A DNA stretch of 64,000 nucleotides from an uncultured Planctomycetia bacterium (GTDB taxonomy: Bacteria > Omnitrophota > Gorgyraeia > Tantalellales > Tantalellaceae), in contig CAZGQR010000001.1 of the NCBI GenBank assembly GCA_964527765.1, positions 182,353 to 246,352 on the forward strand, given 5' to 3'. Within the stretch, counting starts at the first letter, position 1. The number at the start of each line of letters is the position of its first letter. This document shows positions 37,398-62,213 of this stretch, one piece after another. The notes under the pieces were generated by a model. That model was not told where the DNA came from and did no database searches. It saw nothing but the letters and a program-made list of their open reading frames with translations. Position numbers and translations under genes: made by a program.

Positions 37398-38261
37398 CTA
37401 CCGTCTTCTTTTCTTTCGCTTCTTCGCTTTCTTCGTGAGCCGTGCTTCCGCTTCTTTTTCCTGTTCTTCCATCATCTTGCGCAGCTTCACCATGCACGTC
37501 GCCTCGATCTGCCTGACCCTTTCGCGGGTGATGCCGAAATGCTTGGCAGTATCCCTGAGAGTATGCGCAACGCCGTCCTTGCCGAGCCCGAACCTTAACT
37601 GTAATATCTTTTTCTCGCGCGGGGACATCTTCTCCAGAAGGCCTTCGATCCTCTCGTGGAGGAGGAATTTAGAAAGCTCGTCAACGGAAGTGACGATACT
37701 CTCATCCTCGATAAGGTCCATGAATTCGGAGTCCCCTGATTCTCCGATGGGAGCGTTCAGGCTGGAGATATTCGATGCCATGTGGTTGAGCTGCCGGATG
37801 CGGGATACCGGCATCTTCATCTTCTTGGCTATGTCGCTCAGCTGCGGGGTTTTCTTCTGCTTCTGCAAAAGCTGTTTCTTCACCTTCTGGAATCGCATGA
37901 GCATTTCCATGACATACACGGGTATGCGGACGGTCTTACCCTGATTCGCCACGGCTCTTGTGATAAACTGCTTGATCCACCACGCGGCATAAGTGCTGAA
38001 GCGGTATCCCTTGTCCGGATCATACTTGGTAACGGCCTTCATCAGGCCCAGGTTGCCTTCCTCTATAAGGTCCAACATGGGAACGCCCAGGTAACTGTAT
38101 TTCTTCGCGATATTGATGACCAGCCGCAGGTTGCTCTTGATCATCCGCTGCCGGGCCTTCTTATCGCCTCTCCTGACCTTTTTTGCAAGCTCTTTTTCCT
38201 CTTCGGCCGTAAGGAGCGGCAGGTCTCGTATGTCTTTCAGGTAAAGTTTTATCGCTTCCAT
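37398..38261 (-). CDS. RNA polymerase sigma-70 family factor (RpoD/RpoS-like, regions 2-4)
   Basis: Start placed at MEAIKLY (no SD, apparently leaderless). Region 2 YAAWWIKQFITRA and region 4.2 helix-turn-helix present. Confidence 0.8.
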   Translation of the reverse strand: MEAIKLYLKDIRDLPLLTAEEEKELAKKVRRGDKKARQRMIKSNLRLVINIAKKYSYLGVPMLDLIEEGNLGLMKAVTKYDPDKGYRFSTYAAWWIKQFITRAVANQGKTVRIPVYVMEMLMRFQKVKKQLLQKQKKTPQLSDIAKKMKMPVSRIRQLNHMASNISSLNAPIGESGDSEFMDLIEDESIVTSVDELSKFLLHERIEGLLEKMSPREKKILQLRFGLGKDGVAHTLRDTAKHFGITRERVRQIEATCMVKLRKMMEEQEKEAEARLTKKAKKRKKRRR

Positions 38262-38307
38262 TTGAAAAATACAGTGACTGGCTCGAGCCGGGGGCATGCC
38301 GCCGTGA

Positions 38308-38324
38308 ACCTGTCCCGCCTTTCT
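38308..38324 (-). promoter_or_regulatory. recurrent intergenic motif GAAAGGCGGGACAGGTT (minus sense), instance A
   Basis: Starts 1 nt after the ppdK TAG stop. 37 nt upstream of TATTTTTCAA, which directly abuts the sigma-factor ATG. Confidence 0.3.
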
Positions 38325-41093
38325 CTATCCTCTTGTAAGCGCCGCCTGTGCCGCGGCAAGCCTTGCTATCGGCACGCGAAACGGCGAACAGCTCACATAA
38401 TTCATTCCCGCGGCGTAGCAAAAAGCAATGGAATCCGGGTCGCCGCCGTGCTCCCCGCAGATCCCTACTTTCAGTTCCGGCCGGGTCTTCCTTCCCCGAT
38501 CTATGCCGACCTTTATAAGCTGACCTACTCCTTCCTGGTCAAGCGACTGGAACGGGTCCTGCGGAAGGATATGCTTGTTCAGGTACGGCGAAAGGAACGA
38601 TCCCATGTCATCACGCGAGAAACCATAGCTCATCTGCGTCAGATCATTGGTGCCGAACGAGAAGAAATCCGCTACCCTGGCGATCTTATCCGCCGTAAGG
38701 GCGGCGCGGGGTATTTCTATCATGGTACCGACCATGAACGGAAGTTTTTTGATATGGTACTTTGCCGTTACTTCTTTCCGCACGCGGTCGATTATCTCGC
38801 TCTGGTCGCTTATTTCCTTATCGGTACCGACAACGGGTATCATGATCTCGGGATACACTTTTTTTCTTCTCTTTATCAATTCTGCCGTGGCTTCGAGTAT
38901 GGCCCTTACCTGCATTTCGGTGATCTCCGGATAAGTCACGCCCAAACGCACGCCCCGGTGTCCCATCATGGGATTGCTCTCCTTAAGAAGCGCGATACGT
39001 TTCTCGAGATTGGACATATCGACCTTCAGGCTTTTCGCCAGTTCCTTGAGCTGTTCTTTCTGATGCGGCACGAACTCGTGCAGCGGCGGGTCCAGGAGCC
39101 TCACCGTGACCGGCAGTCCCGCCATCGCCTCGAGTGTGCCCTTGATATCGGACTTCACGTACGGATACAGCTCCCTAAGAGCTCTTTCCCTTTCTTCGAC
39201 TGAATCGGAAAGTATCATCTTGCGAAGCTTGAAAAGCGGCTTCTCCGAACCCTCGCCGTAGAACATGTGTTCCGTCCTGAAAAGACCTATGCCTTCCGCG
39301 CCGAAATCGCGGGCTCTCCTGGCGTCTTCAGGCGTATCCGCATTGGTCCTGATCTTCATCTTCCTGGCCGAATCACAGATCTTCAGAAAACTGTTAAGTA
39401 CCTTGTTCTCTTTTGTCGCGTCCATCATCGGAAGAACGCCCCTGTATACAAGCCCCTTCGTGCCGTTAAGCGTGATCCTGTCGCCTTCTTTAAGAAGCGT
39501 ATCACCGGCGATCTTAACGGTCTTTTTGCTATAATCTATATCCAGGTCTCCGCAGCCGACTATGCAGCATTTGCCCCAGCCGCGGGCGACAAGCGCCGCG
39601 TGAGACGTCATGCCGCCGCGCGCGGTAAGTATCGCCTGCGCGGCTCTCATGCCTTCGACGTCTTCGGGATTTGTCTCCTCGCGGACCAATATGACCCTCC
39701 TGCCTTTTTTCGCCCATTCCACGGAAGCGTCCGAGTCGAAGACTATCATGCCGCTCGCCGCGCCGGGTCCTGCGGGAAGACCCTTGGTCAGGGGTTTGTT
39801 CTTTTTCTCGGCCGCGGGATCGATTATCGGATGAAGAAGCTCGTCAAGCTGGGACGGTCTTACCCTCATGATCGCCTCTTTCTTGCCGATAAGTCCCTCT
39901 CTGACCATATCGACAGCCATCTTCACGGCAGCCGGCCCGTTACGTTTGCCCGTGCGCGTCTGAAGCAGGAAGAGCCTGCCGTTCTCAATGGTGAACTCGA
40001 TATCCTGCATGTCGCGATAATGTCTTTCAAGTCTCTTCTGGATACTGTCAAGCTGTTTGTACGCCTTGGGCATAAAATCTTTAAGCATGACCTCGTGTTT
40101 ATTGTGCTCACTTTGCGAGTTTTTATTTATCGGAGCGGGAGTCCTTATGCCCGCAACGACATCCTCGCCCTGCGCGTTGATCAGATACTCGCCATAGAAC
40201 CTGTTATCACCGTTGCCGGGATTACGCGTAAAGGCGACACCGGTACCGGAATGATCGCCCATATTGCCGAACACCATGGTCTGGACGTTTACCGCTGTTC
40301 CCCATTCGTCGGGAATATTCTCGATACGACGGTACGATATCGCCCTCTTGCCGTTCCATGAAGAAAAGACGGCGCCGATACCGCCCCAGAGCTGCTTATC
40401 GGCATTGTCCGGGAATTCTTTGCCAAGAACCTGTTTTACCTTTTTCTTGTACTTTTCACAGAGATCTTTGAGGTCGCCGGCATCGAGTTCAGTGTCCAGC
40501 TTAACGCCCCTTTCGCGTTTCTTCGCCTCCAGCAATCTCTCAAGCTGCTGGCGCACGCCTTTACCTTCTTTTGTTTCTATCCCGGCGGCTTTTTCCATCA
40601 CAACGTCCGAATACATCGTTATAAGCCGCCTGTACGCATCGTATGCAAGCCTTTCATTGCCGGTCTGCCTGATAATACCGGGGATGGTCCTGGTTGTCAG
40701 GCCTATATTAAGCACCGTCTCCATCATTCCCGGCATGGACTGGCGCGCGCCGGATCGTACGGAGACAAGAAGCGGATTTTTCGGATCCCCGAAGTTCTTA
40801 TGCATGATCTTCTCGACCTTTTTCAGGGCCGAGGCGACCTCTCTCTCAAGCCCTGCCGGGTACTTGCCTTTGCTCTTGTAATAATACGTGCATACATCCG
40901 TGGTTATGGTAAACCCGGGGGGCACGGGGATCCTCAGTGCCGGATGCCCCGCCATCTCTGCAAGGTTGGCGCCCTTGCCGCCCAGCAAGTTCTTCATACT
41001 GCTGTCGCCGTCGGCTTTTCCTCCGCCGAAAAAATACACATTTTTCTTCGCCTTCCCCCTCGCTGTCTTCTTCCTGCTGCTTTTTTTGATCAT
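38325..41093 (-). CDS. ppdK: pyruvate, phosphate dikinase
   Basis: 922 aa. ATP-grasp N-terminus. Phosphohistidine domain GGMTSHAALVARGWG. PEP-utilising C-terminal TIM barrel. Confidence 0.9.
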   Translation of the reverse strand: MIKKSSRKKTARGKAKKNVYFFGGGKADGDSSMKNLLGGKGANLAEMAGHPALRIPVPPGFTITTDVCTYYYKSKGKYPAGLEREVASALKKVEKIMHKNFGDPKNPLLVSVRSGARQSMPGMMETVLNIGLTTRTIPGIIRQTGNERLAYDAYRRLITMYSDVVMEKAAGIETKEGKGVRQQLERLLEAKKRERGVKLDTELDAGDLKDLCEKYKKKVKQVLGKEFPDNADKQLWGGIGAVFSSWNGKRAISYRRIENIPDEWGTAVNVQTMVFGNMGDHSGTGVAFTRNPGNGDNRFYGEYLINAQGEDVVAGIRTPAPINKNSQSEHNKHEVMLKDFMPKAYKQLDSIQKRLERHYRDMQDIEFTIENGRLFLLQTRTGKRNGPAAVKMAVDMVREGLIGKKEAIMRVRPSQLDELLHPIIDPAAEKKNKPLTKGLPAGPGAASGMIVFDSDASVEWAKKGRRVILVREETNPEDVEGMRAAQAILTARGGMTSHAALVARGWGKCCIVGCGDLDIDYSKKTVKIAGDTLLKEGDRITLNGTKGLVYRGVLPMMDATKENKVLNSFLKICDSARKMKIRTNADTPEDARRARDFGAEGIGLFRTEHMFYGEGSEKPLFKLRKMILSDSVEERERALRELYPYVKSDIKGTLEAMAGLPVTVRLLDPPLHEFVPHQKEQLKELAKSLKVDMSNLEKRIALLKESNPMMGHRGVRLGVTYPEITEMQVRAILEATAELIKRRKKVYPEIMIPVVGTDKEISDQSEIIDRVRKEVTAKYHIKKLPFMVGTMIEIPRAALTADKIARVADFFSFGTNDLTQMSYGFSRDDMGSFLSPYLNKHILPQDPFQSLDQEGVGQLIKVGIDRGRKTRPELKVGICGEHGGDPDSIAFCYAAGMNYVSCSPFRVPIARLAAAQAALTRG

Positions 41094-41114
41094 CTCGTCC
41101 TCTTCCTCCTTTTT

Positions 41115-42434
41115 TTACAGTCCCAGTTTCTCCTCCATGAACTCCTTGAGCTTAGAAACCTCTACCCTGTCCTGTTCCATGGTATCCCTTTCTCTGACCG
41201 TGACTTTGCCGTCGCTCAGAGAATCCACGTCCACGGTGATACAATAAGGCGTTCCGATCTCATCCTGCCTGCGATAAAGCCTCCCGATGGCAGCCGTGTC
41301 GTCATAAACGGCCCGGTAATTTCCGCTGATATCTTTTCGTATCTTGTGCGCCATCTCCACTATCTCGGGCCTGTTCTTGAGAAGCGGAAGGACCGCCACC
41401 TTGATCGGAGCGATACGCCTGTCGAATGAAAGATAGACCCGTTTTCTTTCCCTTACGGTCTCGGACCTGTATGCGTCAACAAGAAACGCCAGGACCGTTC
41501 TGTCTATTCCTCCCGAGGGTTCTATGACATACGGGACATAACGTTCGGATGTGGTATCATCAAAATATTGAAGGTCCTTACCGCTGATCTTTGAGTGCTG
41601 TTTGAGGTCGAAATCCTTCCTGTTGGCAATGCCTTCCAGTTCCGACCACCCCATCGGGAAAAGATATTCTATATCATGGCATCTTTTAGCGTAATGTGCC
41701 AGTTCTTCCTTTTTGTGTTCGCGCAGTCTCAGGTTTTCCCTTTTTATGCCCAGCGAGACATACCAGTTCATGCGCTCGTCCAGCCAGTACTCATACCACT
41801 TTTCATCTTCGCCGGGCTTGACAAAATACTCAAGTTCCATCTGCTCGAACTCCCGGCTCCTGAAGGTAAAATTGCCGGTGGTTATCTCGTTGCGGAAGGC
41901 TTTACCTATCTGGGCAACGCCGAACGGAAGCTTGCGCCGGCTGGAATTGATTATGTTTTCAAAGTTCACGAATATTCCCTGGGCCGTTTCCGGCCGCAGA
42001 TAGACGTCCTGAGCCTGCCCTTCCACGGATCCCACCTGCGTCTTGAACATGAGGTTGAAACTTTTCGGTTCGGTAAGCGCTCCACCGCATTCCGGGCATT
42101 TATTTTCCTTAAGCTGGTCGATCCGGAATCTTTTTTTACATTCCCTGCAGTCGACCAGCATGTCCGCAAAAGACGTGACATGTCCCGATGCCTTCCATGT
42201 CTCGGGATTCATGAGTATGGCGGCATCCAGCCCCTCGACGTCGTTGCGGTCATATACCATGGACTTCCACCACCGGTCTTTCACGTTCTTCTTGAGTTCA
42301 GCGCCGAGCGGACCGTAATCCCACACGCTGCCTATGCCGCCGTATATCTCGCTGTCCTGGAATACGAACCCGCGTCTCTTGCAAAGATTCGCTATCTCTT
42401 TCAGTGTCACACCGGTATTCCTGTCCTCAGCCAT
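41115..42434 (-). CDS. glyQS: glycine--tRNA ligase (dimeric class II type)
   Basis: 439 aa. Class II motifs and GlyRS-specific N-terminus RGFVFQDSEIYGG. Confidence 0.9.
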   Translation of the reverse strand: MAEDRNTGVTLKEIANLCKRRGFVFQDSEIYGGIGSVWDYGPLGAELKKNVKDRWWKSMVYDRNDVEGLDAAILMNPETWKASGHVTSFADMLVDCRECKKRFRIDQLKENKCPECGGALTEPKSFNLMFKTQVGSVEGQAQDVYLRPETAQGIFVNFENIINSSRRKLPFGVAQIGKAFRNEITTGNFTFRSREFEQMELEYFVKPGEDEKWYEYWLDERMNWYVSLGIKRENLRLREHKKEELAHYAKRCHDIEYLFPMGWSELEGIANRKDFDLKQHSKISGKDLQYFDDTTSERYVPYVIEPSGGIDRTVLAFLVDAYRSETVRERKRVYLSFDRRIAPIKVAVLPLLKNRPEIVEMAHKIRKDISGNYRAVYDDTAAIGRLYRRQDEIGTPYCITVDVDSLSDGKVTVRERDTMEQDRVEVSKLKEFMEEKLGL

Positions 42435-42436
42435 GT

Positions 42437-43201
42437 TTATGCTATCCCTACTTTTTGAAGTTCTTCTAAAAATTTAAGCGACCTCACCGGCCTGTTTATG
42501 TAATACTGCAGAAATCTTTTCAGGGCCTCCTCCGTCTCCCTGCCGACTTCCTTGCTGACCTTGATCCGGGCGGTCTTGGCCATATCGCTCAGCTGTATCT
42601 TGTGCATGAATTTTACCGTCCCCGGCGACAGGCGCAGACACGCGTCGTCCTTTTTGCCGCAACCGGCGCACAGCATGCCGCCGCTCTTTACGCTGAAGCA
42701 GCCTTTCCCCTCGACAGCCGCGCCGCACCTGACACATTCATCCAGCCGTGGAGCGAGACCCAGTGTTTCCAAAAGTTTCAGTTCAAAGATCCTCGAAACA
42801 CGTTTTGCGCTGGCACCCGAACTCAGCATCCGGAGGCTTTCCAGCAGAACATGGTAAAGCCCCTTGTTCACATCGTAATCCCTGGTAACTATGTTTACTA
42901 ATTCTATAAAATAATTGGCGTATGTCAACCTTTCAATATCTTTTCTTACCGGAAGGAAAAAATCCAGCGCTTCGCATTGGGTGATCAGGTCCATAAGTTT
43001 CTTCTTTTTTCTGTAAAAGAGCAATTGACACCGCGTGAAGATCTCAAAATTCCCCCCGAACTGGGGATAGGGGTCCCTCACCCCCTTCATGACCCCTCTT
43101 ATCTTGCCGAATTCCTTCGTGAACACGACCAGAACATAACTGGTCTCCCTCAGGTAATACTTCCTGAGTATGATTCCTTCCGCACTCTGCGCCGCTGCCA
43201 T
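42437..43201 (-). CDS. recO: DNA repair protein RecO
   Basis: 254 aa. OB N-terminus and C-terminal zinc motif CVRCG...CAGCG. Confidence 0.8.
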   Translation of the reverse strand: MAAAQSAEGIILRKYYLRETSYVLVVFTKEFGKIRGVMKGVRDPYPQFGGNFEIFTRCQLLFYRKKKKLMDLITQCEALDFFLPVRKDIERLTYANYFIELVNIVTRDYDVNKGLYHVLLESLRMLSSGASAKRVSRIFELKLLETLGLAPRLDECVRCGAAVEGKGCFSVKSGGMLCAGCGKKDDACLRLSPGTVKFMHKIQLSDMAKTARIKVSKEVGRETEEALKRFLQYYINRPVRSLKFLEELQKVGIA

Positions 43202-43204
43202 GGC

Positions 43205-43864
43205 TTAACCTGTCCCGCCAGCTTCTTCTTCCGCTGCTATCTGGTACGACGGGGATACCGAACCTCCGGAAATGTGAAGTTTCATGCCGTCTTCCACGCT
43301 CATTTTCAAAAAACGAATATTTTCTTTCGGCACGACCAGAAAAATACCGCTTGTGGGGTTCGGCGTCGTCGGGATGAACACGTTGACGCCGCTTCCGCCT
43401 ATGAACTCCCTTATCTCGCCTTTCGTGGTGCCGGTCGTGAACCCTATGGAATACAAGCCCTTCCGCGGATATTCCACAAGAACGACCTGCTTGAATATCG
43501 TCTTGCCCTGCCCCAGGAACGCCGAGAATATCTGCTTCGCGGCGTTGTATATCCTCCCCATTACCGGGACCTTGAGCAAGAGGTTCTCCCCCAGGGAAAA
43601 CATCCGGTTGATGAACCATATTTTCGCCCCCCACCCGATGACAGCTATTGTGACTATAACGATAAAGAAGATCAGTGCCTTGGCTATGTAAATATGCTGG
43701 GTTTCCCATGATACCGGCGCAAAAAACCTGGCTATGGGATTCAATACTATATTGTTGAGCTGCACCACGAGAAACCTGATGAGCGCTGCCGTAACAGCCA
43801 CCGGCAATAACAACACGACACCGTTGACAAAATTCACGAAAAATCTGTTCCATAATTTTCTCAT
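43205..43864 (-). CDS. DUF502-family membrane protein
   Basis: 219 aa. Two N-terminal TM helices and conserved PTTPNPTSG motif. Confidence 0.6.
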   Translation of the reverse strand: MRKLWNRFFVNFVNGVVLLLPVAVTAALIRFLVVQLNNIVLNPIARFFAPVSWETQHIYIAKALIFFIVIVTIAVIGWGAKIWFINRMFSLGENLLLKVPVMGRIYNAAKQIFSAFLGQGKTIFKQVVLVEYPRKGLYSIGFTTGTTKGEIREFIGGSGVNVFIPTTPNPTSGIFLVVPKENIRFLKMSVEDGMKLHISGGSVSPSYQIAAEEEAGGTG

Positions 43865-43885
43865 GATTCTTCCTCCAGCAAAACG

Positions 43886-44611
43886 TCACGACAACAATTG
43901 AAACACAAGCAAAGCTGTCAGCGCTCCAAGAACGCTGCCCGCGATGACCTGCCACAGCGTATGGATCTTGCCCGCCATGCGGCTTTTAGCGATAAGCACG
44001 GCCAGGAAAAATACCAGGAGGCTCACCAGGGCGTTTTCGGTAATAAGCGAAACTGCTGCCCAGATCGCGAATGCAACAGCGGCATGGCCGCTGGGCATAC
44101 CGCCTCTCAGAAGAGACCCTTCCCTCCGCGCCACCTTTATAAAGAGTACCAGTCCGATAGCTATCAGAAGCGCTATCAATGTCACGTGCCAGGGGGATTG
44201 TTTGATCTTAAGGAACGCTCCGTCAAAAGGCCATCCTATGCGCTTGAACACCAGTATGTACCCCACAATGGCCGCGTTGACCGCCGCGACAAAGACCGCG
44301 CCTGCCGCGATGTCCTTGATGATCTTGAACAGCGGATGATACTGATCGCTGACAAAATCTATTGCGTGCTCGACGGCCGTATTGAACATCTCAGCGACAA
44401 GAACGAATGTAACTGCAAAACATAGCAACAGGAATTCCACCGCGCTCAAATTGAAATATACGCCCGCGATAAGGACCAGGAATCCCATCAGGAAATGCAA
44501 CCGCATGTTCCTCTCTGACTTGAGCGTGTGGACGATCCCTTCAAGAGCGGCGTTCACGCTGTAGATAAATCCCTTGCTATAGGAACTTCCTGATTTTTTG
44601 TAAGAGTTCAT
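43886..44611 (-). CDS. diacylglycerol kinase (DgkA) fused to PAP2-family phosphatase
   Basis: 241 aa. N-terminal half has DgkA motifs (NTAVEHAIDF). C-terminal half has the PAP2 PSGH motif. Confidence 0.6.
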   Translation of the reverse strand: MNSYKKSGSSYSKGFIYSVNAALEGIVHTLKSERNMRLHFLMGFLVLIAGVYFNLSAVEFLLLCFAVTFVLVAEMFNTAVEHAIDFVSDQYHPLFKIIKDIAAGAVFVAAVNAAIVGYILVFKRIGWPFDGAFLKIKQSPWHVTLIALLIAIGLVLFIKVARREGSLLRGGMPSGHAAVAFAIWAAVSLITENALVSLLVFFLAVLIAKSRMAGKIHTLWQVIAGSVLGALTALLVFQLLS

Positions 44612-45002
44612 TCTCTTTTTCCCGCATTATTTTCCGGCTTTTCCCCGTGGTGTCCTTGTACCCTGCAAGATGCAGTATACCGTGTATCAGGCAAAGAGCT
44701 ATTTCCTCGCCAAACGTCACACCGTAGATCCCGGCATTCTGCGCCGCCCTATCAGAGGATATGGCTATATCCCCCAGGAACTTGTCCTCTCCGGACGCAA
44801 ACGCTATCACATCCGTTGCCGCATCCACGCCGAGATAGGCGCGGTTAAGCGCGCGGATCTTCTGGTTGCTGAAAAATACTATGTCCAGCTCGACACCGTC
44901 TTTTCCGAGCATCTTCAGGACTGTTTTCGCGACTTTTTCAGTTTTTGAAAGATCAATCCTTCTTTTTCTGTTTCGGTTTTCGCTGTTTATTTTTATTGTC
45001 AT
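44577..45002 (-). CDS. ybeY: rRNA maturation endoribonuclease YbeY
   Basis: 141 aa. HGILHLAGYKD zinc-binding motif. Confidence 0.85.
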   Translation of the reverse strand: MTIKINSENRNRKRRIDLSKTEKVAKTVLKMLGKDGVELDIVFFSNQKIRALNRAYLGVDAATDVIAFASGEDKFLGDIAISSDRAAQNAGIYGVTFGEEIALCLIHGILHLAGYKDTTGKSRKIMREKENELLQKIRKFL

Positions 45003-50269: not shown

Positions 50270-51545
50270 ATTCGCCTTTCAAGCGCCTGAGAGCCCCCTC
50301 AAAAGACAGCGTTTTCTGCTCGCCGCTCTCCATGTCTTTGAGAAGCAGTTTCCCGCTTTTTATCTCTTCTTCGCCTATTATGATGACGAATTTCCTCCCG
50401 TCCTTATGGGCCTTGCGCATCTGCCCTTTGACCGACCGGCCGGAATGGTCCATCTCGCACGGCACGCCTCCGGCCCGCAATCTGTTGGTGCTACGGAATG
50501 CCTCCGGGCGTGATCCGTCATCTACGGGGATCACCAGGACCCCGGGCAGCGAATCCGAAAGGGCATTTTTCCCGTCAACGACAAGGAGCAACCTTTCAAC
50601 GCCGATAGCGTGTCCTGTCGCCCCCGCGTCCGGGCCTCCCATTTGTCTTGCAAGATTGTCATACCTGCCGCCTGCGGCTATCGCATCCTGCGCTCCCAGC
50701 GAAGGATGAACCACTTCGAATATTGTCCCCGTGTAGTAATCCAGCCCCCTCACCAGGTCTTTTTTCTCGCGAAAAGGCACTTTCATGTCCGAAAGGATCC
50801 CTTTCAGGGCGCGGTAGTCTTCCCGGCACCTTTTACACAGGTGATCCAGGATACCGGGAGCTTTTTTCACTATATCCTTGCACTCTTTTCTCTTGCAATC
50901 CAGCACGCGCAGCACGTTCCTCTTGACCCTTCTCCTGCAGTCATCGCACAAGCCGGAGCTTTTTGCGGCCAGGTAATCTGCCAGTGTTTTCTGGTAACCG
51001 GCCCGGTCTTTGTCGCATCCCAGCGAGTTAAGCAATATGGTAAAACCGTCGACCTTAAAGCTTTTCAAGAGCGCCTCAAGGTTGAGTATGATCTCGGCGT
51101 CCACGTAAGGCCCCGAAGCGCCTATTATTTCCGCCCCTATCTGGTGAAACTGCCTGAGGCGCCCTTTCTGAGGACGTTCCCCCCTGAACATGGGGCCAAA
51201 ATAATACAACTTGACCGTATCTCGCTTGTTATGCCAGCCGTGCTCTATATATGCCCGTATGATCGAAGCTGTTCCTTCGGGCCGAAGCGAGACATTCTTG
51301 CCTCCCCTGTCGGTGAAGGAATACATCTCCTTTTCGACTATATCCGTATCCTCTCCTATGCTGCGCGTAAAGACTTCCGTCTCTTCAAGAAGGGGAATAC
51401 GTATTTCATCATACCCGAACGTATGAAACACGCCCCGCGCCTTATCTTCTACCCAGCGCATCACGGCTGCTTTTTCGGGAAGAACATCGGGCATACCTCT
51501 AAGCGACTTGTACTTGAGCTCACCCACGCTAACCCCTATTCTCAC
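50253..51545 (-). CDS. hisS: histidine--tRNA ligase
   Basis: 430 aa. Class IIa motifs and HisRS-specific regions. The annotated start is GTG. The downstream MPDVLP Met is an alternative start. Confidence 0.9.
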   Translation of the reverse strand: MRIGVSVGELKYKSLRGMPDVLPEKAAVMRWVEDKARGVFHTFGYDEIRIPLLEETEVFTRSIGEDTDIVEKEMYSFTDRGGKNVSLRPEGTASIIRAYIEHGWHNKRDTVKLYYFGPMFRGERPQKGRLRQFHQIGAEIIGASGPYVDAEIILNLEALLKSFKVDGFTILLNSLGCDKDRAGYQKTLADYLAAKSSGLCDDCRRRVKRNVLRVLDCKRKECKDIVKKAPGILDHLCKRCREDYRALKGILSDMKVPFREKKDLVRGLDYYTGTIFEVVHPSLGAQDAIAAGGRYDNLARQMGGPDAGATGHAIGVERLLLVVDGKNALSDSLPGVLVIPVDDGSRPEAFRSTNRLRAGGVPCEMDHSGRSVKGQMRKAHKDGRKFVIIIGEEEIKSGKLLLKDMESGEQKTLSFEGALRRLKGEYDTNA

Positions 51546-51593
51546 AAAAGTAAATGGAACGGCCCTACTCCCGGCCTCACGCCACTACGGTAG

Positions 51594-51609
51594 ACCTGTC
51601 CCGCCTTTC
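51594..51609 (-). promoter_or_regulatory. recurrent motif instance B
   Basis: 12 nt after the HU stop. 39 nt upstream of ATTTACTTTTGTG at the hisS start. Confidence 0.3.
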
Positions 51610-51620
51610 ATGCCGTATTC

Positions 51621-51902: not shown

Positions 51903-51984
51903 ATATGCTCCCTTCCTTTAATGAGCTCACAACTTACGCGACTGAAAGGAGTGTAAGTTGTATGAGCGAATTAATCCGGCACTA

Positions 51985-55100: not shown

Positions 55101-55581
55101 TTGCCTGTTCCCCCTGGTCCGACAGGAGAAGATGTGCTATCTCGCCCCTGAGGCAGGCTGACAGGGCGATCAGGCCTTTTGAGCATCTGGCGAGCACTTC
55201 CTTGTCCACCCTGGGCCTGTAATAAAAACCTTCCAGGTAACCGATAGAAACGATCTCCATTAAATTCCTGTACCCGGTCATGTTCCTGGCCAGAAGGACC
55301 AGGTGATATGATGCCCCCCTGATCCCGTGACTTGTCTTATCGAAACGGCTTTCCGGGGCCACATATATCTCGCATCCGATAATGGGCTTGATCCCTCTTC
55401 TCCTGGCTTTTTCATAAAATTCAATAACGCCGAACATGTTCCCGTGATCGGTTATCGCGCATGCCGGCATGTTATATTTATTGGCAAGGTCAAGCAGTTC
55501 GTCGAGTCGGCATGCGCCGTCAAGAAGGCTGTACTGGGTATGGACATGCAAATGCACAAAGTTGGACTGCGGTTCTGTCAT
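52129..55581 (-). CDS. dnaE: DNA polymerase III alpha subunit
   Basis: 1150 aa. PHP N-terminus HVHTQYSLLDG, polymerase core, OB-fold C-terminus. Confidence 0.9.
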   Translation of the reverse strand: MTEPQSNFVHLHVHTQYSLLDGACRLDELLDLANKYNMPACAITDHGNMFGVIEFYEKARRRGIKPIIGCEIYVAPESRFDKTSHGIRGASYHLVLLARNMTGYRNLMEIVSIGYLEGFYYRPRVDKEVLARCSKGLIALSACLRGEIAHLLLSDQGEQARKTASEYADIFGRDNFYLEVQDNQFEQQYKVNAEMIKLARELDLPLVATNDVHYLDKSDAKAHEALLCIQTQATLDDPNRMRFQTDQLYFKSPEEMQNAFSDVPEAVTNTVKIAEMCQLELDFNELHLPHFQAPGNEENTAFFNRLVSEGIKKRYETITDEVRERVEHELKIIRSSGYVSYFLIVWDFISHAKEKGIPVGPGRGSAAGSIVSYALGITDLDPLKYGLIFERFLNPERVTMPDIDIDFCFEKRSEVIDYVIEKYSKENVAQIITFGTMMAKGVLRDVGRVMSIPYAEVDKIAKLVPNDPGITLERALEIEPELNDRYEDDPVVRQLIDISERLEGLNRHASTHAAGVVISDKPLQKRIPLFKTTDDQVSTGFAMKSLEKIGMLKMDFLGLKTLTVIDHTLKIVKRTREEDIDIDKIPLDDKPTFELLQRAETAGVFQLESGGMRDLLRKLNPGRFEDLIAILALYRPGPMGSGMLDDFIKRKQGHIDVKYDHPMLEPILKETYGIIVFQEQVMQIVSALAGFNMAEADDVRKIMSKKNPEAMAGIKVKFMEGAKKNGVDSLTAEKIWDFIAYFAGYGFNKSHSAAYAMVSYRTAYLKANYPVEFMTALLTSEKNNSDKIADYINEAIRMTIDILPPDVNESFKDFTVVGKDIRFGLSAVKNVGEGAAESIIATRQNDGKFESIYDFTRKVDLRTVNRKVLESLIKCGAFDSIGIRRSQAMAVLDKVLAMAAKANKDRDLGQMSFFDDTNTDESFKDNFQDMPDIPEWPEHELLANEKEMLGFYITKHPLARFERLLSAYSTCKISELSGLSDGQKVLIGGIVSKVRTTVTRKKSEKMAILSLEDLDNFVEVLVFPKTYRKAPELAKEDKMVYVHGRLSLREEEPKIIAEEIIALEKVKEKFTKAVLIKISTTGLEDRMMKKIKRAIESFKGKTPVFIEFVSPEGRKVRLSTDSELFVHPTKELVDKVETIVGIGNVKFLTR

Positions 55582-55634
55582 GGTTTTGGTGCGGTTTTTA
55601 GAAATAATAACTCATTGACCCGGACATGATAGGA

Positions 55635-56795
55635 TCATTTTCGCATCCCGACACGCTGGGCGGTCTGGTAGACTTTTCCCTCCGTCTGGATCGAAGGCGC
55701 TATGATCATATCTACGTGCTGCATCTCGCGGATATTGTGCGCCCCGAGATTGCCCATGCTCGTAGCAAGAGCACCTACAAGATTTTGCGTGCCGTCGTCG
55801 AGCCGGGCGGGACCGTACAGGATCTCTTCGAGCGTACTCGTAGTGCCTACCTCTATACGGGTTCCTCTCGGAAGAGAAGGATGAGGCATTGCCATGCCCC
55901 AGTGATAACCTCTGCCGGGTGCTTCGGTAGCCCTGGCAAAAGCGTTGCCCAGCATAACGGCATCGGCGCCCGCGGCAAATGCTTTACAAATATCACCGCC
56001 GGTGGCCATACCGCCATCGGTGATTATCGGGATATACTTGCCGGTTTCTTTGTAATAAAAATCCCTGGCAGCGGCGCAATCACAGGTCGCGGTGATCTGC
56101 GGCACGCCTATCCCGAGAACCCCGCGTGAAGTACACGCCGTTCCCGGTCCGATACCGACAAAGATCCCCTGACATCCGGTCTTCATAAGTTCGGTAGCTA
56201 CGTCGTAGCTGACGCAATTACCGAAAAGTACGGGTATCTTCATCTTTCCGCAGAACTTGGTAAGATCCAGGGGTTTATATTTGTTCGACTCGTGTTTTAT
56301 GCTGATAACAGTGGACTGGACTGCAAAGATATCGCATCCCGCATCCTGCGCGATGGGACCGAATCTTTCAGCCACCTGGGGATTACAACTGACGACCGCG
56401 GGCGCACCGGCGGCTTTTATCTCTTTGATCCTCTTGGTTATGAGGTCTTCCTTGATCGGTTCGGAATAAACATCCTGTATGGCCTTGGTGCTTTCCTTCG
56501 CATCGCAGTTCACGATCTTTTCGATAGCTCCGGAAGGATCGTTATATCTGGTCGAAATGCCTTCAAGATGCAGAACGGCTATCCCTCCAAGCTTGCCCAT
56601 CGCTATGGCGAAATTAACATCCACTACACCGTCCATCGAAGATGCCATTATCGGGACCTGAAATTTTATCCCCCCTATCTCGCAGGAAGTATCGACATCA
56701 TCAGGGTTTATCGTAAGGTTGCCCGGAACCAGAGAGACCTCGTCAAAACCGTAACTGCGCCTGGCTTTTCGCCCCATACCGATCCACATTCCCAT
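55635..56795 (-). CDS. IMP dehydrogenase/GMP reductase-family protein lacking CBS pair
   Basis: Start placed at MGMWIG (SD GAGGAGG 6 nt upstream) rather than the 56879 ORF start. Begins YGFDEVSLVPG like IMPDH. Catalytic-loop-like GIGPGTACTSR. Confidence 0.7.
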   Translation of the reverse strand: MGMWIGMGRKARRSYGFDEVSLVPGNLTINPDDVDTSCEIGGIKFQVPIMASSMDGVVDVNFAIAMGKLGGIAVLHLEGISTRYNDPSGAIEKIVNCDAKESTKAIQDVYSEPIKEDLITKRIKEIKAAGAPAVVSCNPQVAERFGPIAQDAGCDIFAVQSTVISIKHESNKYKPLDLTKFCGKMKIPVLFGNCVSYDVATELMKTGCQGIFVGIGPGTACTSRGVLGIGVPQITATCDCAAARDFYYKETGKYIPIITDGGMATGGDICKAFAAGADAVMLGNAFARATEAPGRGYHWGMAMPHPSLPRGTRIEVGTTSTLEEILYGPARLDDGTQNLVGALATSMGNLGAHNIREMQHVDMIIAPSIQTEGKVYQTAQRVGMRK

Positions 56796-57010
56796 AATTG
56801 CCTCCTCTATCAAAATTTGGTCCTTCGGCCGGCCTTCTGATGTAATCGGCCGCCTTCGGCCCCTTCGGGCTGTTGGCAAACACAGCCAAATTTTTTTAAT
56901 GGGGAACCAATGGTTCCCCCTTAATGTTCCCCCTCCTTCATTGGAAGGGCCTCTGTGCTACCGACACATGTGCCGGCTCTATGTTAATATCAAATAAAGA
57001 TTTAGATAGT

Positions 57011-57039
57011 ATGATACAAAAGAGAGAGGTATTTGTCAA
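57011..57039 (-). promoter_or_regulatory. sigma70 promoter (TTGACA-17-TATCAT) giving a ~200-nt structured leader
   Basis: Minus sense ATTGACAaatacctctctcttttgTATCAT. The leader contains hairpins GGGGAACC-ATT-GGTTCCCC and GGCTGT-GTTTGCCA-ACAGCC. Confidence 0.45.
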
Positions 57040-57143
57040 TAGCAGCACTAATCAATAGCCGGTACCCGGGTTTAAGCCGCGGGTGCATTGTTTCCGAAGG
57101 ATAAGGACTTGTATCGTTGGAACATCGGCTGAAAAGCGCGATA

Positions 57144-58838
57144 TCAGAAGGAAGCCTGTTCGGCTGCCACAGGTGCCTGTTCGTGGCCTTTCCATCTCAT
57201 CTCGCTGATCACGCCCTGGGCCACGTTGGTAAGATGGTCGCCTATTTTCTCCAGGTTATCGACAAAATCCATAAAAACGATCCCTGACCTCAGGTCGCAA
57301 AGGCCGTTATTAAGCCGGTTCACATGCGACTTCTTAAGATTCTCCTGGAATTTATTCACCTGCTGTTCCCTTTTTAATACATCTTCGGCTATGCGCGGAT
57401 CGTTCTTCTTTAGTGCCGCTTCCGCCTCTATCATCATGCTGTTCAGCTCATTCCACATCAAATTAAGTTCCTTGATGGCATCATCGGTGAACGGAAGCTT
57501 CTTTTCTATCTTGCGTTCGGCAAGTTCCACGATATTCTCGGAATGGTCCCCTATCCTCTCAATATCATTGACGTTGTGGATCAAAACAGGAAGTTCTTCC
57601 GATTCCTGCTGGCTGAGGGTCCTCTGCGAAAGTTCGACAAGGTACTGCGTGATCTCCGACTGGAGATTATCAACGGCCTGTTCCAGTTTCGTCACCGGTT
57701 TTAAGGCATTGATGTCGTTCTCGAGAAAACCTTTAACTGCGCTTGATACCGACTTGCGGGCCAGGCCCATCATCCAGACGGTCTCCCTGCGGGCCTGTTC
57801 CATGGCGATGGGCGGCGTTTCCAGCAGGTGTTTCTCAAGATACTGCGGCCCCGCCTCAATAGCTCCTTTTCTTTTGGGAACGAGAAAAATGCTCGCTTTC
57901 TCAAGAAGCCCGATAAACGGCAGAAAAAGACAGGCGTTGAAGATCTTAAAAACACTGTTGGCGACAGCGATATGGAACATAACATTTTTAAGAGTGATCT
58001 CACCGGGAATAATGAAGTCTATCGCCTTCACGAACCATCCTGTATAGACAAAAACAAGCATATAACCAACACCTATGACGTTAAACAGGGTATGCGACAT
58101 GGCCGCCCGTCTTGCCGGCAGATTCGTGCCCACGGCCGCCAGCTGCGCGGTGATGGTCGTCCCTATATCATCGCCGAGCACCAGGGGAATGGCGGCGGGA
58201 AAACTTATAAGACCGTTAAAAGCCATGACCTGGACTATAGCTATGGTCGCGCTGGAGGACTGGATCAGCATGGTGACAAGCATGCCTACAAGCACACCCA
58301 GGATGGGGTTATCGCTAAAGCTAATAAACAGGTCTTTTACGTGCTGACTTTGCTTCAGGGGCTCGAAGGCGTCTTTCATGAACCCCAGCCCCACAAAAAG
58401 AAGACCGAACCCCATGATCGTCTGTCCCCAGAATTTGGTATTTTTGGTCCGGCCGAATGTCTTGACGGCAAAACCAATGCCGATGATCGGAAGAGCGTAA
58501 TTGGTGATCCTGAAAACCGACATGGAAGAGACGAGCCACGCGGTAAATGTCGTCCCGATATTCGCCCCCATCACCACGCTTATGGCCTGTTTTAGCGCAA
58601 GAAGTCCGGCATTGACAAACCCGACGACCATGACCGTGGTGGCACTTGAGGACTGGATCAGACAGGTTATCGCAGCTCCGACCAGAATTCCGAGAACAGG
58701 GAGCTTCGTAACTATGCGGAGGATATTCTTGAGACGGTCACCGGCTATTTTCTTGAGCCCTTCGGACATGGTCTGCATCCCGAAAAAGAAAAGCCCGAGA
58801 CCGCCTATAAGCATGAATATCAGATGAACACTCATCAC
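57144..58838 (-). CDS. Na+/phosphate cotransporter (PNaS/NptA family) fused to PhoU-like domains
   Basis: 564 aa. Duplicated QSSSAT transporter repeats. C-terminal PhoU-like helices with two D..RIGDH motifs. Confidence 0.75.
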   Translation of the reverse strand: MMSVHLIFMLIGGLGLFFFGMQTMSEGLKKIAGDRLKNILRIVTKLPVLGILVGAAITCLIQSSSATTVMVVGFVNAGLLALKQAISVVMGANIGTTFTAWLVSSMSVFRITNYALPIIGIGFAVKTFGRTKNTKFWGQTIMGFGLLFVGLGFMKDAFEPLKQSQHVKDLFISFSDNPILGVLVGMLVTMLIQSSSATIAIVQVMAFNGLISFPAAIPLVLGDDIGTTITAQLAAVGTNLPARRAAMSHTLFNVIGVGYMLVFVYTGWFVKAIDFIIPGEITLKNVMFHIAVANSVFKIFNACLFLPFIGLLEKASIFLVPKRKGAIEAGPQYLEKHLLETPPIAMEQARRETVWMMGLARKSVSSAVKGFLENDINALKPVTKLEQAVDNLQSEITQYLVELSQRTLSQQESEELPVLIHNVNDIERIGDHSENIVELAERKIEKKLPFTDDAIKELNLMWNELNSMMIEAEAALKKNDPRIAEDVLKREQQVNKFQENLKKSHVNRLNNGLCDLRSGIVFMDFVDNLEKIGDHLTNVAQGVISEMRWKGHEQAPVAAEQASF

Positions 58839-58959
58839 TTCTTATTTTCTGATATATTGTATTGTTATTAGTCTTGTTAAGGAAGTCATCACTGTCAGGC
58901 ATAAGTTAACATGAAGCATTGACGGTGTCAAGGGGGAAAACCTGAAAGCAGAGATCGGA

Positions 58960-59796
58960 CTATGTCCCTATGCGGACAGTGTCGAAATATCCTTCAAGTG
59001 AAGCGATGGCTGCCAGAACAGCAAGATAGCTTGTCCCGGGATTACCGGGGGAGGGCACGTTTTCGGCACGCGTTGTGAGGGTTCCCGCCTTGCTTTTGAC
59101 CTCTATTTCATGCGTGTTTTTCGTATATTCGCCAGAGACCACTATTTTGACCCTGGTGTTTTCGGCGCCTATGCCGGCCAATGAAAGAAGCGCGGAAACG
59201 TTGATATTTTTCGGAAAACCTTTTATCGCATCCAGCGCACTACCCTCGAAAATAACGGTCTCGTCCGTTATCGTTTCCACGTCGATGCCTTTCTCTGAAA
59301 GATACGGCGCTCCTTTAACGGACCGGGGCGGCTTGCGTGTAGTGAGGGTCACGCTCTCGATACCCGCAAGTCCCGCGGACTTTAAGGCGTCAATGCCGGC
59401 AACGGCCCCGGACGGAAGGATCAATCTTATGTTCTTTTCCCGTACTTCGGCAAGAAGGCCTTCGTTGCCTATGAATCCTCCTATGCTCATGACCATGACA
59501 TCCTTCCCCTGCCCCAGAGCCGCTTTCACGAGATCCGGCACGACCTGGGGGGAAGCGGCTTCTATTATAAGGTCCGCTTTTTTCAGTGTTTCTTCCGCGC
59601 TGTTCGCGACCACAGCGTTCTGAATTTTTTCCGCGAGCACTTCGGCCTTGCGGATATCGCTATCGCAAAGAATTATTTCCGCAATAATTTTTGTCAGGCT
59701 CTTCCCCGCATGTTCGGCAAGAGCTGATCCTATAACGCCGCACCCGACAATCCCTATAATTTTTTTGCTCATGCTTGAACCCCTGGTTTTGTACAT
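58960..59796 (-). CDS. nadX: L-aspartate dehydrogenase
   Basis: Rossmann GIVGCGVIGS. C-terminal block ENVPSPGNPGTSYLAVLAAIASL matches the NadX signature. Adjacent nadA. The first ATG (leaderless) versus MSKKIIG start is unresolved. Confidence 0.8.
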   Translation of the reverse strand: MYKTRGSSMSKKIIGIVGCGVIGSALAEHAGKSLTKIIAEIILCDSDIRKAEVLAEKIQNAVVANSAEETLKKADLIIEAASPQVVPDLVKAALGQGKDVMVMSIGGFIGNEGLLAEVREKNIRLILPSGAVAGIDALKSAGLAGIESVTLTTRKPPRSVKGAPYLSEKGIDVETITDETVIFEGSALDAIKGFPKNINVSALLSLAGIGAENTRVKIVVSGEYTKNTHEIEVKSKAGTLTTRAENVPSPGNPGTSYLAVLAAIASLEGYFDTVRIGT

Positions 59797-59850
59797 AAAA
59801 GTAAAAATATAGGGACCGGTTCAGACCATAGATTATGCTACTGCAGTGAA

Positions 59851-59865
59851 CCTGTCCCGCCTTTC
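59851..59865 (-). promoter_or_regulatory. recurrent motif instance C
   Basis: 4 nt after the nadA stop. 43 nt upstream of TTTTTACTTTTATG at the nadX first ATG. Confidence 0.3.
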
Positions 59866-59869
59866 AGCC

Positions 59870-60808
59870 CTACTGCGCCACTTCAAGCATTCTCTTCAGC
59901 GCCCTGCGCGCTTTTTCTGCCGTCTTTCCCGGCACTTCGATCCTGTAGACCATCTTCTCGAGAGACCTGGCGAGCCAGCCAAGGGTCGTAAGCTTCATGT
60001 TGGCGCAGATAAATTGATCTGTGGGGATATAAAATTTCTTGTCCGGATTATCCCGTTTTAATTTATAAACGATACCCATCTCTGTCCCCACGATGAATTC
60101 CCCTGCCGGGCTTTGCTTGACATATTTTATCATGCCGGCGGTGCTTCCTATATAGTCCGCCAGTTCAAGCACTTCTTTGCGGCATTCGGGGTGCGCTATG
60201 AATTCCGCGCGAGGATGGAGTTTCTTTGTCTTGATCACATTTTCCCTGATCAATCGCATGTGCACGGTGCAGTATCCATCCCAGAGAATAAGTTCTTTTT
60301 CCGGAACCTGCTCGGCGACATAACGACCGAGGTTCCTGTCGGGAACGAATAACACTCTGTTCTCTTTCAACGACCTTACCACCTGGACCGCGTTGGAGGA
60401 AGTACAGCATATATCGCTTTCCGCCTTGACCGCCGCCGTGGAATTGACATAACACACCACGGCCGCATCGGGATACTCTTCTTTTTTGTTCCTGAGCTTT
60501 TCAGCCGTAGCCATATCCGCGAGAGGGCATCCCGCTTCTTCCACGGGGAGAAGCACTGTCTTGTCGGGACTGAGCATATAAGCACTTTCTGCCATGAACC
60601 TCACGCCGCAGAATACAACGACTTTTTCCCCGGCTTTGGTGATCCTGCGGGCAAGAGCGTAAGAATCTCCGGTAATGTCGGCGATCTCCTGCACTTCGTC
60701 ACGCTGATAATTATGCGCGACTATAAGCGCCCCTCTCTCCTTCTTCAGGTCCAGTATCTTCCTCCTGAGGTGCTCTTTATACTTCTGGTCAAACTCGGGT
60801 TTCAGCAT
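59870..60808 (-). CDS. nadA: quinolinate synthase
   Basis: 312 aa. Three conserved Cys for the Fe-S cluster. NadA-typical HNYQ and HPEC motifs. Confidence 0.85.
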
Positions 60809-61665
60809 ATATGTTCCTCGCGACGAATCACCACATTATCGATCAGCCTCGTACCCCCCACAAAAACAGCTACCGCTATCAACGTATTGTTTTTCACTGT
60901 TTCAAGCGGAGCGAGATTCTCCGCATCTACTATCTCGACATAATCTATCCGGACGTCTTTGCCTTTCCTCAGGTTCTTTTCCATCTCCTCTTTGATCCGC
61001 TTGGCCGAGATATCCCCGCCGGCCACCATCTCTTTCGCCCGTTCCAGGGAAAGGAAAAGCCCCAGCGCCTGCCTCCTCTCGTCCACGGAAAGATAGGTAT
61101 TGCGTGAGCTCATTGCCAGGCCGTCCTCTTCCCGGATTATCGGCATCACGCGTATCTCGAGTGGTATGTTCAGGTCCTTGACCATACGTTTCACGACAGC
61201 GGCCTGCTGAGCGTCTTTCTGTCCGAAATAGCTTACGTGCGGCTGTACAATATCAAAAAGTTTCGCGACAACGGTAGTAACTCCCCTGAAATGGCCCGGC
61301 CTGGATCTCCCGCACAAGGTCTCTGTAAGAGGCCCTGTAACCTCAACATAAGTAATAGAACCTTCCGGGTACATTTCCCCGGCGGAAGGCGCAAAGATAA
61401 CATCAGCCCCCTCTTCCCCGGCAAGGCGCTTGTCCCTTTCCATATCACGCGGATATTCGCTAAAATCTTCACCGGGCGCGAACTGGGTCGGGTTGACGAA
61501 GATGCTGACAACAACGATGTCGCATTCTTCCCGTGCCGCCCTGACAAGGCTGAGGTGCCCCCCGTGCAGATAACCCATGGTGGGGACAAAACCGATAGTT
61601 TTGCCTTCCTGCCTCGCCTTGCGCGAGTAATCTCTCATCCCGTCAATTGTCGTGATTATTTGCAT
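60802..61665 (-). CDS. panC: pantoate--beta-alanine ligase
   Basis: 287 aa. [14 protein letters not shown]-type motif. Confidence 0.9.
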
Positions 61666-61712
61666 CGTATAAAAGTAAAAACGCGCGGGGGCGGTCTATT
61701 CCCGGCCTTACC

Positions 61713-62213
61713 CTACTGCCGTAGGCCTGTCCCGCCTTTCACTTCCTTATCACCCTTCACCTGTCCGTACAATTCCGCTGCTGTCCTGCCAAGCAGGGGG
61801 TGCATGACCTCGGGGGCGATCTCCGCAAGACCGCGCAGAACAAAATACCTCTCATGCATCCTGGGATGCGGAATATCAAGCCTGCCGGTCTTCAGCACCA
61901 GACTGCCATAGAGAAGGATGTCGATATCGATGACCCGCGGATGGTTTCGTGCTCCGGTTGTCCCGCGCCCCATATCTTTTTCAATATCCTTGAGAACGCC
62001 AAGAAATTTCTCTGGTGGGATCTCTGTCTCGACCTTCAGGACGCCATTCAGATAATTCTCCTGCGGCGGGCCGCCTACGGAACGCGTCTGGTAAAAACGC
62101 GAACGCGTTATTATCCTTATACCTTCGGCCGTTTGCAGGCGCCTGACCGCTTCATTGCAATTTGACTCTTTATCACCGATGTTTGACCCTAAGCCAAGGT
62201 AAGCAACAGACAT
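61713..62213 (-). CDS. folK: 2-amino-4-hydroxy-6-hydroxymethyldihydropteridine pyrophosphokinase
   Basis: 166 aa. LGLGSNIGD and IDIDILLYG HPPK motifs. The last codons read through the recurrent GAAAGGCGGGACAGG motif. Confidence 0.8.
   Translation of the reverse strand: MSVAYLGLGSNIGDKESNCNEAVRRLQTAEGIRIITRSRFYQTRSVGGPPQENYLNGVLKVETEIPPEKFLGVLKDIEKDMGRGTTGARNHPRVIDIDILLYGSLVLKTGRLDIPHPRMHERYFVLRGLAEIAPEVMHPLLGRTAAELYGQVKGDKEVKGGTGLRQ
61726..61740 (-). promoter_or_regulatory. recurrent motif instance D
   Basis: Within the last codons of folK (encodes KGGTGL). 44 nt upstream of TTTTTACTTTTATACG-ATG of panC. Confidence 0.3.

Follow-up and report, generated by a model that had tools for sequence, protein, structure and literature searches.

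The DNA considered here is a window of 64 kb from an uncultured Omnitrophota bacterium of the family Tantalellaceae (contig CAZGQR010000001.1, positions 182,353 to 246,352). Homologues of PanC, RpoD and BioA assign it to Candidatus Omnitrophota. Its minus strand carries conserved biosynthetic operons, including the gene order argD...dapB-aminotransferase-folK-panC-nadA-nadX-NaPi-IMPDH-dnaE-HU-hisS, and at several of the gene junctions on that strand the same motif recurs. The motif is the most conserved part, and the 5' end, of a repeat unit of 70-80 nt (about 75), made up of a hairpin and a T tract. Four complete copies, here called A to D, and one solitary copy of the motif are found in the window. 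The scores given are those of a covariance model built from six copies of the unit.

38257..38326, minus strand: copy A, between the stop codon of the gene for pyruvate phosphate dikinase (PPDK) and the rpoD ATG; 62.4 bits (5' box 38309-38323; hairpin 38274-38316; T tail 38262-38273; rpoD ATG 38261-38259)
51539..51612, minus strand: copy B, between the HU gene and hisS; 74.7 bits (5' box 51595-51609; hairpin 51556-51602; T tail 51543-51555; hisS GTG 51527)
59790..59868, minus strand: copy C, between nadA and nadX; 90.1 bits (5' box 59851-59865; hairpin 59812-59858; T tail 59794-59811; nadX ATG 59772)
61664..61743, minus strand: copy D, between folK and panC; 80.3 bits (5' box 61726-61740; hairpin 61687-61733; T tail 61669-61686; panC ATG 61665)
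43207..43219, minus strand: solo 5' box AACCTGTCCCGCC (sense GGCGGGACAGGTT), without hairpin or T tail; no match to the covariance model

According to Pfam, the genes on either side of copy A encode PPDK and a primary sigma-70 factor. At copy D, the frame of folK enters the element and terminates at a TAG in its loop. The solo box encodes the final residues of a DUF502 protein, GGTG*, and is separated from the recO ATG by 3 nt.

The 15-mer CCTGTCCCGCCTTTC has exactly four occurrences in the window, always on the plus strand (at 38309, 51595, 59851 and 61726), and a fifth exact copy of its 11-nt core, GGCGGGACAGG, is present at 43209-43219. All copies read GAAAGGCGGGACAGG when taken in the direction of the minus-strand genes. 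With up to 3 mismatches the 15-mer has 10 matches, where 3.1 are expected (none of 100 shuffles gave as many); the core has 7 with at most 1 mismatch (1.8 expected), and GGGACAGGT has 8 (0.28 expected). The sequence-only reading that first drew attention to the motif had two of its four exact sites right (59851 and 61726) and the other two, 38308 and 51594, each off by one nucleotide; the partial copy it had placed near 43213 is the exact core at 43209-43219. Its description of the surroundings is borne out as well. Every copy in the window lies 1-12 nt past a stop codon or within the final codons of a gene, and the motif is indeed translated as GGTG(L) at the C-termini of FolK (...VKGGTGLRQ*) and the DUF502 protein (...AGGTG*). 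A T-rich box follows 35-46 nt past the motif. The homology that had been claimed between copies B and D is real (85% identity over 46 nt), and alignment of the spacers shows that homology runs across the whole 70-80 nt, rather than being confined to two separate boxes. Since the same window sequence was obtained in independent assemblies from JGI, ENA and Logan (L005-L007, L024-L026), the repeats are not artefacts of assembly.

In the direction of the neighbouring genes, from 5' to 3', the unit begins with a box, (T)GAAAGGCGGGACAGG, continues with a hairpin that overlaps the box, and ends in a T-rich tail, ATTTTTACTTTTAT(G), with 5-8 T within its first 10 bases. The box usually opens with TGA and resembles the junction between a stop codon and a ribosome-binding site. 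Each copy folds as one long imperfect hairpin of 43-47 nt (free energy -13 to -23 kcal/mol). The 5' arm consists of the last eight bases of the box, GGGACAGG, plus TTYA, and the 3' arm, TRAACCNGTCCC, lies just before the T box; the arms read GGGACAGGTTTAC. The stem of 11-14 bp has GGGAC/GTCCC at its base and carries a loop of about 20 nt, and in half of the copies the run of T begins 4-5 nt past the stem. Over the 10 copies known in all (see below), 91% of the pair cells are standard, as opposed to 23-56% after a shift of the 3' partner by 1-3 columns, and three pairs of the hairpin show compensatory changes, UA to CG. The element has a G+C content of 41-57%. Its consensus has stops in all three frames, namely the 5' TGA, the GTAG of the loop, and TAA, TAG or TGA two codons on, and the in-loop TAG is kept in six copies. 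A conserved stop in frame 1 (TAA/TAG/TGA) was also considered as a feature in its own right and rejected, as the absence of TGG with nine copies is not significant.

Spread of the unit and its filled and empty junctions

When the 64 kb of the window were searched with the covariance model, the four copies scored 62-90 bits and the next best match 14.8 bits. Three more copies, E, F and G, are found in the same genome, in 9.6 kb just beyond the start of the window (L024), and the same model gave no copy in the 7.6 kb beyond its end (L005); altogether about 81 kb of the source genome was examined. Two further members, L010 and L011, share a metagenome contig, Ga0180432_10000170, and another is carried by L019/L022. 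This makes 10 copies in three Omnitrophota lineages, with a divergent variant in a fourth (L033). The scan of metagenomes returned seven stretches, the true members being only L010 and L011. A scan of viral contigs gave one match, to the box only (L023, 19.9 bits), probably by chance. Among 185,579 species-representative genomes, GAAAGGCGGGACAGGYYYAC had four matches, all in unrelated coding sequences; the source species evidently lies outside that collection. No copies were found in about 110 kb of distinct Omnitrophota sequence (L015, L018/L021, L027/L028, L030/L032 and L029). A search of the whole window against Rfam gave nothing at gathering thresholds and only chance-level microRNA matches at E up to 10.

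All 10 copies come after a stop codon and have the orientation of the upstream gene, and 9 of them lie between co-directional genes of an operon, set precisely between the first gene's stop codon and the second gene's start codon or ribosome-binding site. The remaining one, copy F, lies between convergent genes, directly past the stop of the minus-strand gene. It follows that the orientation of the unit goes with the upstream gene and that neither a downstream gene nor a promoter is needed. The core of copy F is flanked by a perfect 24-nt direct repeat, TTCCCGGTAGCGGGCGGGACAGGT (L024 11346-11369 and 11425-11448), which takes in the final codons of the upstream gene together with its stop and whose second arm carries the 5' box. 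This repeat represents either a partial tandem copy or a target duplication of unusual length. An extra 3' half of the element stands in front of copy G. Copies E and L011 have flanking direct repeats of 5-6 nt, with TGAAA/ATGAAA on both sides. Flanking repeats picked by eye at B (AGAATASGG), L010 (AAAGGCG) and L019 (TTACC) did not beat shuffles and were discarded.

Relatives in which the gene order given above is kept (L015, L018/L021 and L019, with PanC 70-78% identical) permit junctions to be compared one by one. At folK|panC, nadA|nadX and HU|hisS, the genes of the window are 74-97 nt apart, while the orthologous junctions range from overlap to 41 nt. The folK and panC genes overlap or are separated by 8 nt in L015, L018 and L019. 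The nadA|nadX spacer measures 17 nt in L015, 41 nt in L018 and 23 nt in L019, with the same arrangement of ribosome-binding site and ATG as in the window, where the native spacer (22-23 nt) and the ribosome-binding site in it are retained downstream of copy C. The HU|hisS spacer is 30 nt in L018 and 93 nt in the window. In L033, which has an RpoD 95% identical, a single TAATG contains both the stop of PPDK and the start of rpoD; in the window, copy A sits precisely between the two. The reverse case is provided by L019/L022, which has a copy between panC and nadA, a junction where the genes of the window overlap. In all, five junctions are comparable as filled and empty.

The element is an insertion-polymorphic dispersed repeat. 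Because lineages differ in which junctions of one operon hold copies, it is to be seen as a mobile or otherwise spreading repeat, rather than as a conserved regulatory site. One of the two explanations offered by the sequence-only reading, a family of short intergenic repeat units, is in this respect upheld: ten homologous copies are spread over three lineages, at junctions that are unrelated, and the orthologous sites are empty in syntenic relatives. The motif is probably the 5' end of a small, non-coding interspersed repeat of 70-80 nt, similar to a MITE (miniature inverted-repeat transposable element), that has become dispersed within a narrow group of uncultured Omnitrophota. For this phylum, a limited text search brought up no description of a dispersed repeat family; this one sits in conserved biosynthetic operons. 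Its copies are natural presence/absence markers for strain typing.

Start codons and the T-rich tail

At four sites, the T-rich box had been thought to abut the next start codon directly, with no Shine-Dalgarno sequence, and this arrangement had suggested a promoter, either of a distinct class or carried by the repeat unit itself. At two of the sites the arrangement is as claimed. The rpoD ATG (38261-38259), a start fixed by seven orthologues, all of which begin M(E/D)AIKLYLKDI, abuts the tail, and so does the panC ATG (61665). At the other two it is not, judging from the alignment of orthologues and from JGI gene calls: hisS starts at its second GTG (51527), 16 nt past the T box, and nadX at its second ATG (59772), 21 nt past it, both after AGGGG. 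Together with aroQ (L010) and nadA (L019), these genes have a leader of 16-26 nt with a ribosome-binding site. Moreover, a start without a Shine-Dalgarno sequence is not special to the sites of the element. A ribosome-binding match of at least 4 nt precedes 27 of the 39 called genes of the genome; of the 12 that have none, five lack any match whatever and are not preceded by an element.

Around the copies, start and stop codons are wrongly placed by gene callers, and three calls are artefacts caused by the element. The public PanC (P0001) is 9 codons short (61638-61665), the public RpoD (P0241) is called 13 codons long, from an ATG in the hairpin loop (38262-38297), and the folK call extends about 5 codons into the element (61713-61740).

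Could the unit nonetheless be a distinct class of promoter, dependent on an alternative sigma factor or an activator, with GGCGGGACAGG near -50, TACTTTTAT as the -10-like element, and leaderless mRNAs as its product? Four genes, rpoD, panC, smr (copy E) and bioA (L011), do start 0-4 nt past the T tail without a ribosome-binding site, and TACTTTTG/TACTTTTA shows the TAnnnT outline of a -10 element. However, the distance from the 5' box to the T box is not constant. In the clean copies it is 40, 40, 45, 45 and 46 nt, which gives two classes (40 and 45-46) that differ by half a helical turn. In three scans, no sense-strand pair of sigma-70-like -35 and -10 elements was found wholly within any scanned copy; the only sense-strand match takes its TTTTCA from the tail of copy G and its TATAAT from beyond the copy. 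Canonical TTGACA/TATAAT-like sites are present elsewhere in the genome. A separate canonical promoter, TTGACA-17-TATACT, stands between copy G and mraZ. Copy F has no downstream gene to serve, hisS, nadX, aroQ and nadA retain their leaders of 16-26 nt and their ribosome-binding sites, and in the relatives the same junctions are free of the element, the genes there overlapping and being plainly co-transcribed. A promoter class with leaderless transcripts is not supported and must be considered very unlikely. The variable spacing, the lack of an internal -35/-10 pair, copies F and G and the starts of hisS and nadX leave the promoter unsupported also in the other earlier explanation, in which the repeat units carried it. 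The new class of promoter making leaderless mRNAs, a tempting but false lead, is thus set aside. The T box reads better as a U-tract following the hairpin.

The hairpin, the frames that cross it and the 5' box

A stem and a U-rich tract, co-oriented with the preceding gene, have the outline of an intrinsic terminator or of a stem that protects a 3' end. By this proposal, the transcribed hairpin and U-tract would either terminate transcription of the upstream cistron weakly, as an intrinsic terminator, or form a stem that protects its 3' end, and the "TTTTTACTTTTAT box" would be the U-tract of that hairpin, rather than a -10 element. Any termination must be partial, because for 9 of the 10 copies, which lie within operons, strong termination would do harm. 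Where insertion had separated a downstream gene from its ribosome-binding site, expression would be rescued by other means.

Two copies may illustrate such means: E, between an arfB-like gene and smr, and L011, between bioD and bioA. In both, the stop of the upstream gene is the TGA of the element, overlapping a GTG or ATG start (GTGA/ATGA), the TAG of the loop is changed to CAG, and an open reading frame (ORF) of 24 codons passes through the hairpin and ends in a TGA overlapping the downstream ATG (ATGA). The downstream genes, smr and bioA, have no ribosome-binding site of their own; the bioD|bioA junction before insertion can be reconstructed as AAGGAG-CTTAA-ATGA. The through-ORF would couple the upstream stop to the downstream start translationally. 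Frame 2 is open in 3 of the 4 copies that precede an adjacent start lacking a ribosome-binding site and in none of the 5 where the downstream gene has its own, an association that is suggestive only. Copies E and L011 appear to be a second, independent case of the solution seen in mycobacterial interspersed repetitive units (MIRUs), whereby a repeat comes to lie at a start codon without silencing the gene.

The through-ORF of E and L011, running as it does through a terminator-like hairpin, also recalls attenuation by a leader peptide. One might therefore think of a conserved cis-regulatory RNA (a riboswitch, protein-binding leader or attenuator) that co-regulates rpoD, hisS, nadX, panC, bioA and aroQ. 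The unit has structure, its sequence is conserved, it is transcribed in the same sense as the genes, and several of the downstream genes make cofactors or amino-acid-related products. Still, the through-ORF is present in only 2 of the 10 copies, the downstream genes have no common pathway, and one copy has no downstream gene. The element is not conserved at orthologous positions, its junctions differing between lineages, and no Rfam match speaks for such an RNA even at E up to 10. Such a regulatory RNA is very unlikely.

The reading preferred here, a mobile repeat with a terminator-like hairpin, faces difficulties of its own, some touching mobility and others the hairpin. No transposase domain was found among the ten uncharacterised ORFs of the window. 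No clear terminal inverted repeats were found at the very ends of the element, its inverted repeat being internal, with the box and the T tail outside. Nor was a general target-site duplication found, the test for flanking repeats being significant only for F (24 nt). The hairpin, with its loop of about 20 nt, is unlike the canonical bidirectional terminators of this genome (17438-17473 and 27262-27297), which stand at convergent junctions and have perfect G+C-rich stems of 9-16 bp, loops of 3 nt and flanking A and T tracts. Folding energies show no consistent difference between sense and antisense, 5 of the 10 copies favouring sense, and termination, surmised from fold and tail, may be weak or absent. 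Finally, a hairpin does not explain why conservation is stronger in the 5' box than in the sequence it pairs with, nor why the box persists outside the stem in the variant of L033 (4815-4885). There, the box AAGGGCGGGACAGGTTT comes right after the rpoD stop, and the hairpin behind it is a different and perfect one, GTAGCCGGGG-TTTAAA-CCCCGGCTAC, with a T-rich tail. (The L033 element precedes an apparent tRNA gene, recognized by eye; in the window, rpoD and the gene for tRNA-Arg are 9 nt apart.)

The 5' box is one base off an extended Shine-Dalgarno sequence, GAAAGGAGG, and TGAAAGGCG occurs also at the ordinary junctions between stop codon and ribosome-binding site of dapB|aminotransferase and hisS|aspS. 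The box may be a recognition site for the mobilising enzyme, a mimic of a ribosome-binding site, or a remnant of the junction at which the element originated. Perhaps it plays a part in translation. The box, GAAAGGCGG, could be a site where ribosomes bind or stand by, which the hairpin brings beside the start codon after the tail. Its excess of conservation over the pairing partner, its persistence outside the stem in L033 and its presence at the ordinary junctions just named would fit such a role, as would the four copies that precede start codons without a ribosome-binding site. However, the tail extends 12-24 nt past the stem, which is longer than the normal spacing of a ribosome-binding site, the genes behind B, C, L010 and L019 retain ribosome-binding sites of their own, and copy F has no downstream gene at all. 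That the box binds ribosomes in this way, and that the element thereby carries its own means of expressing the gene behind its landing site, is improbable.

A wider proposal would combine these features. The element might be a mobile unit that lands precisely at the stop/start junctions of tightly packed operons and neutralises its own effect on expression there, in part like a MIRU and in part like a terminator: stops in three frames at the 5' side, then the hairpin, then a 3' end, TTTTATGA, that would recreate a start or a coupled overlap, with the box as an active module for binding ribosomes or a protein. Such a unit is conceivable, if unlikely.

Known small repeats and other repeats in Omnitrophota

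The element would seem to be a small mobile repeat of a known general kind, with SPRITE and MIRU as the closest analogues. The SPRITE repeat of Streptococcus pneumoniae is an AT-rich unit of about 105 nt with a duplex of 18 bp, and it shows strong enrichment between convergent genes (2011, PMC3049150). Both it and the Omnitrophota element are small interspersed repeats with a long stem and then a U-rich tract, both resemble the ordinary terminators of their hosts yet are distinct from them, both are found near the 3' ends of genes, each in a restricted set of related species, and for neither has a cognate transposase or a target-site duplication been identified (PMC3049150). However, the two have no sequence relationship and belong to different host phyla. 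The Omnitrophota element is shorter (about 75 nt), with 41-57% G+C, a large loop and a conserved G-rich 5' box, and 9 of its 10 copies lie between co-directional operon genes.

MIRUs, by the accounts given of them (Supply et al. 1997, via PMC12548453 and PMC3184786), are mobile repeats of 40-100 nt found in operons. So described, they lie within operons and are oriented like the flanking genes, as is true of the element in 9 of the 10 copies, and they share with it filled and empty sites between relatives and short flanking direct repeats. The same accounts have MIRUs inserting at start codons, with an internal ORF coupled downstream by a 4-nt overlap (-4), which for the element is the case only in E and L011, and forming partial tandem copies, for which F and G are the counterparts. 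The element differs in that its consensus has stops in all three frames, the through-ORF being found in 2 of the 10 copies, after mutation of the loop TAG. It also differs in having no long tandem arrays and a prominent hairpin and T tract, as judged from the descriptions of MIRUs.

Other short palindromic extragenic repeats just past stop codons can serve as mRNA-stabilising stems, terminators or carriers of promoters (PMC3184786). The repetitive extragenic palindromes (REPs), the bacterial interspersed mosaic elements (BIMEs) and MITEs such as the Correia elements of Neisseria are like the present element in being short palindromic extragenic repeats placed just past a stop codon. REPs are 21-65 nt long, occur in both orientations and have a 5' GTAG head recognized by REP-associated tyrosine transposases (RAYTs). 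The element, in contrast, is 70-80 nt long, has its GTAG in the loop and is uniform in orientation, and by these features it does not belong with the REP/RAYT systems. Correia elements have 26-bp terminal inverted repeats and TA duplications, while the inverted repeat of the element is internal and no consistent duplication was found. The likeness to MITEs is only partial: what it has in common with them and with small interspersed repeats at large is short, non-coding, homologous copies at unrelated loci, present in one relative and absent from another.

Different palindromic intergenic elements, with related arms, are found in other Omnitrophota (L027 and L029). In L027, intergenic palindromes at 12694-12750 and 14215-14287 are perfect inverted repeats of 23-26 bp, GGGGTCAGGTCTACACATTTACA, with similar arms, GGGGTCAGGTCTAC... 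In L029, an inverted repeat of about 210 nt (3300-3509), GGGACACCTT/AAGGTGTCCC, fills the bioD|bioA junction. Several Omnitrophota have bioD and bioA fused, as in P0124 (L027 10001-12136), a BioD-BioA fusion protein with a (TPGVA)x4 linker. The idea that such fusions are in-frame insertions of the element was dropped, as the linker of P0124 is the (TPGVA)x4 repeat; P0164 is unclear.

The window holds repeats of other kinds. A multi-hairpin sequence of about 150 nt is present in two direct copies on the plus strand (29787-29929 and 31001-31143), 90% identical, that flank an ORF (30092-30970; 292 aa) with no Pfam match. The copies differ by compensatory changes in two stems (GGCCTGAAAGGCC vs GGCCCGAAGGGCC; GATTCTC...GAGAATC vs GATTTTC...GAAAATC), and Rfam gave no match even at E up to 1; the sequence is a candidate for an undescribed structured RNA or element. 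Three tandem 23-nt units, ATTSAGGGACAGGTCTGGGATTG, occupy 19598-19666 (plus strand) in an AT-rich spacer after the inositol monophosphatase gene (19687-20481, minus strand) and before the next minus-strand gene. They have GGGACAGGTCT in common with copy B, but in the opposite orientation relative to transcription.

Two long minus-strand ORFs contain internal repeats, one with a period of 591 nt and 72% identity (22630-22929 and 23221-23520), the other with three units of 381 nt (33255-34078), and in both cases these are probably duplicated protein domains. A cyclic di-GMP-I riboswitch (60.2 bits) is found at 10505-10594 on the plus strand, upstream of an ORF at 10655-11794.

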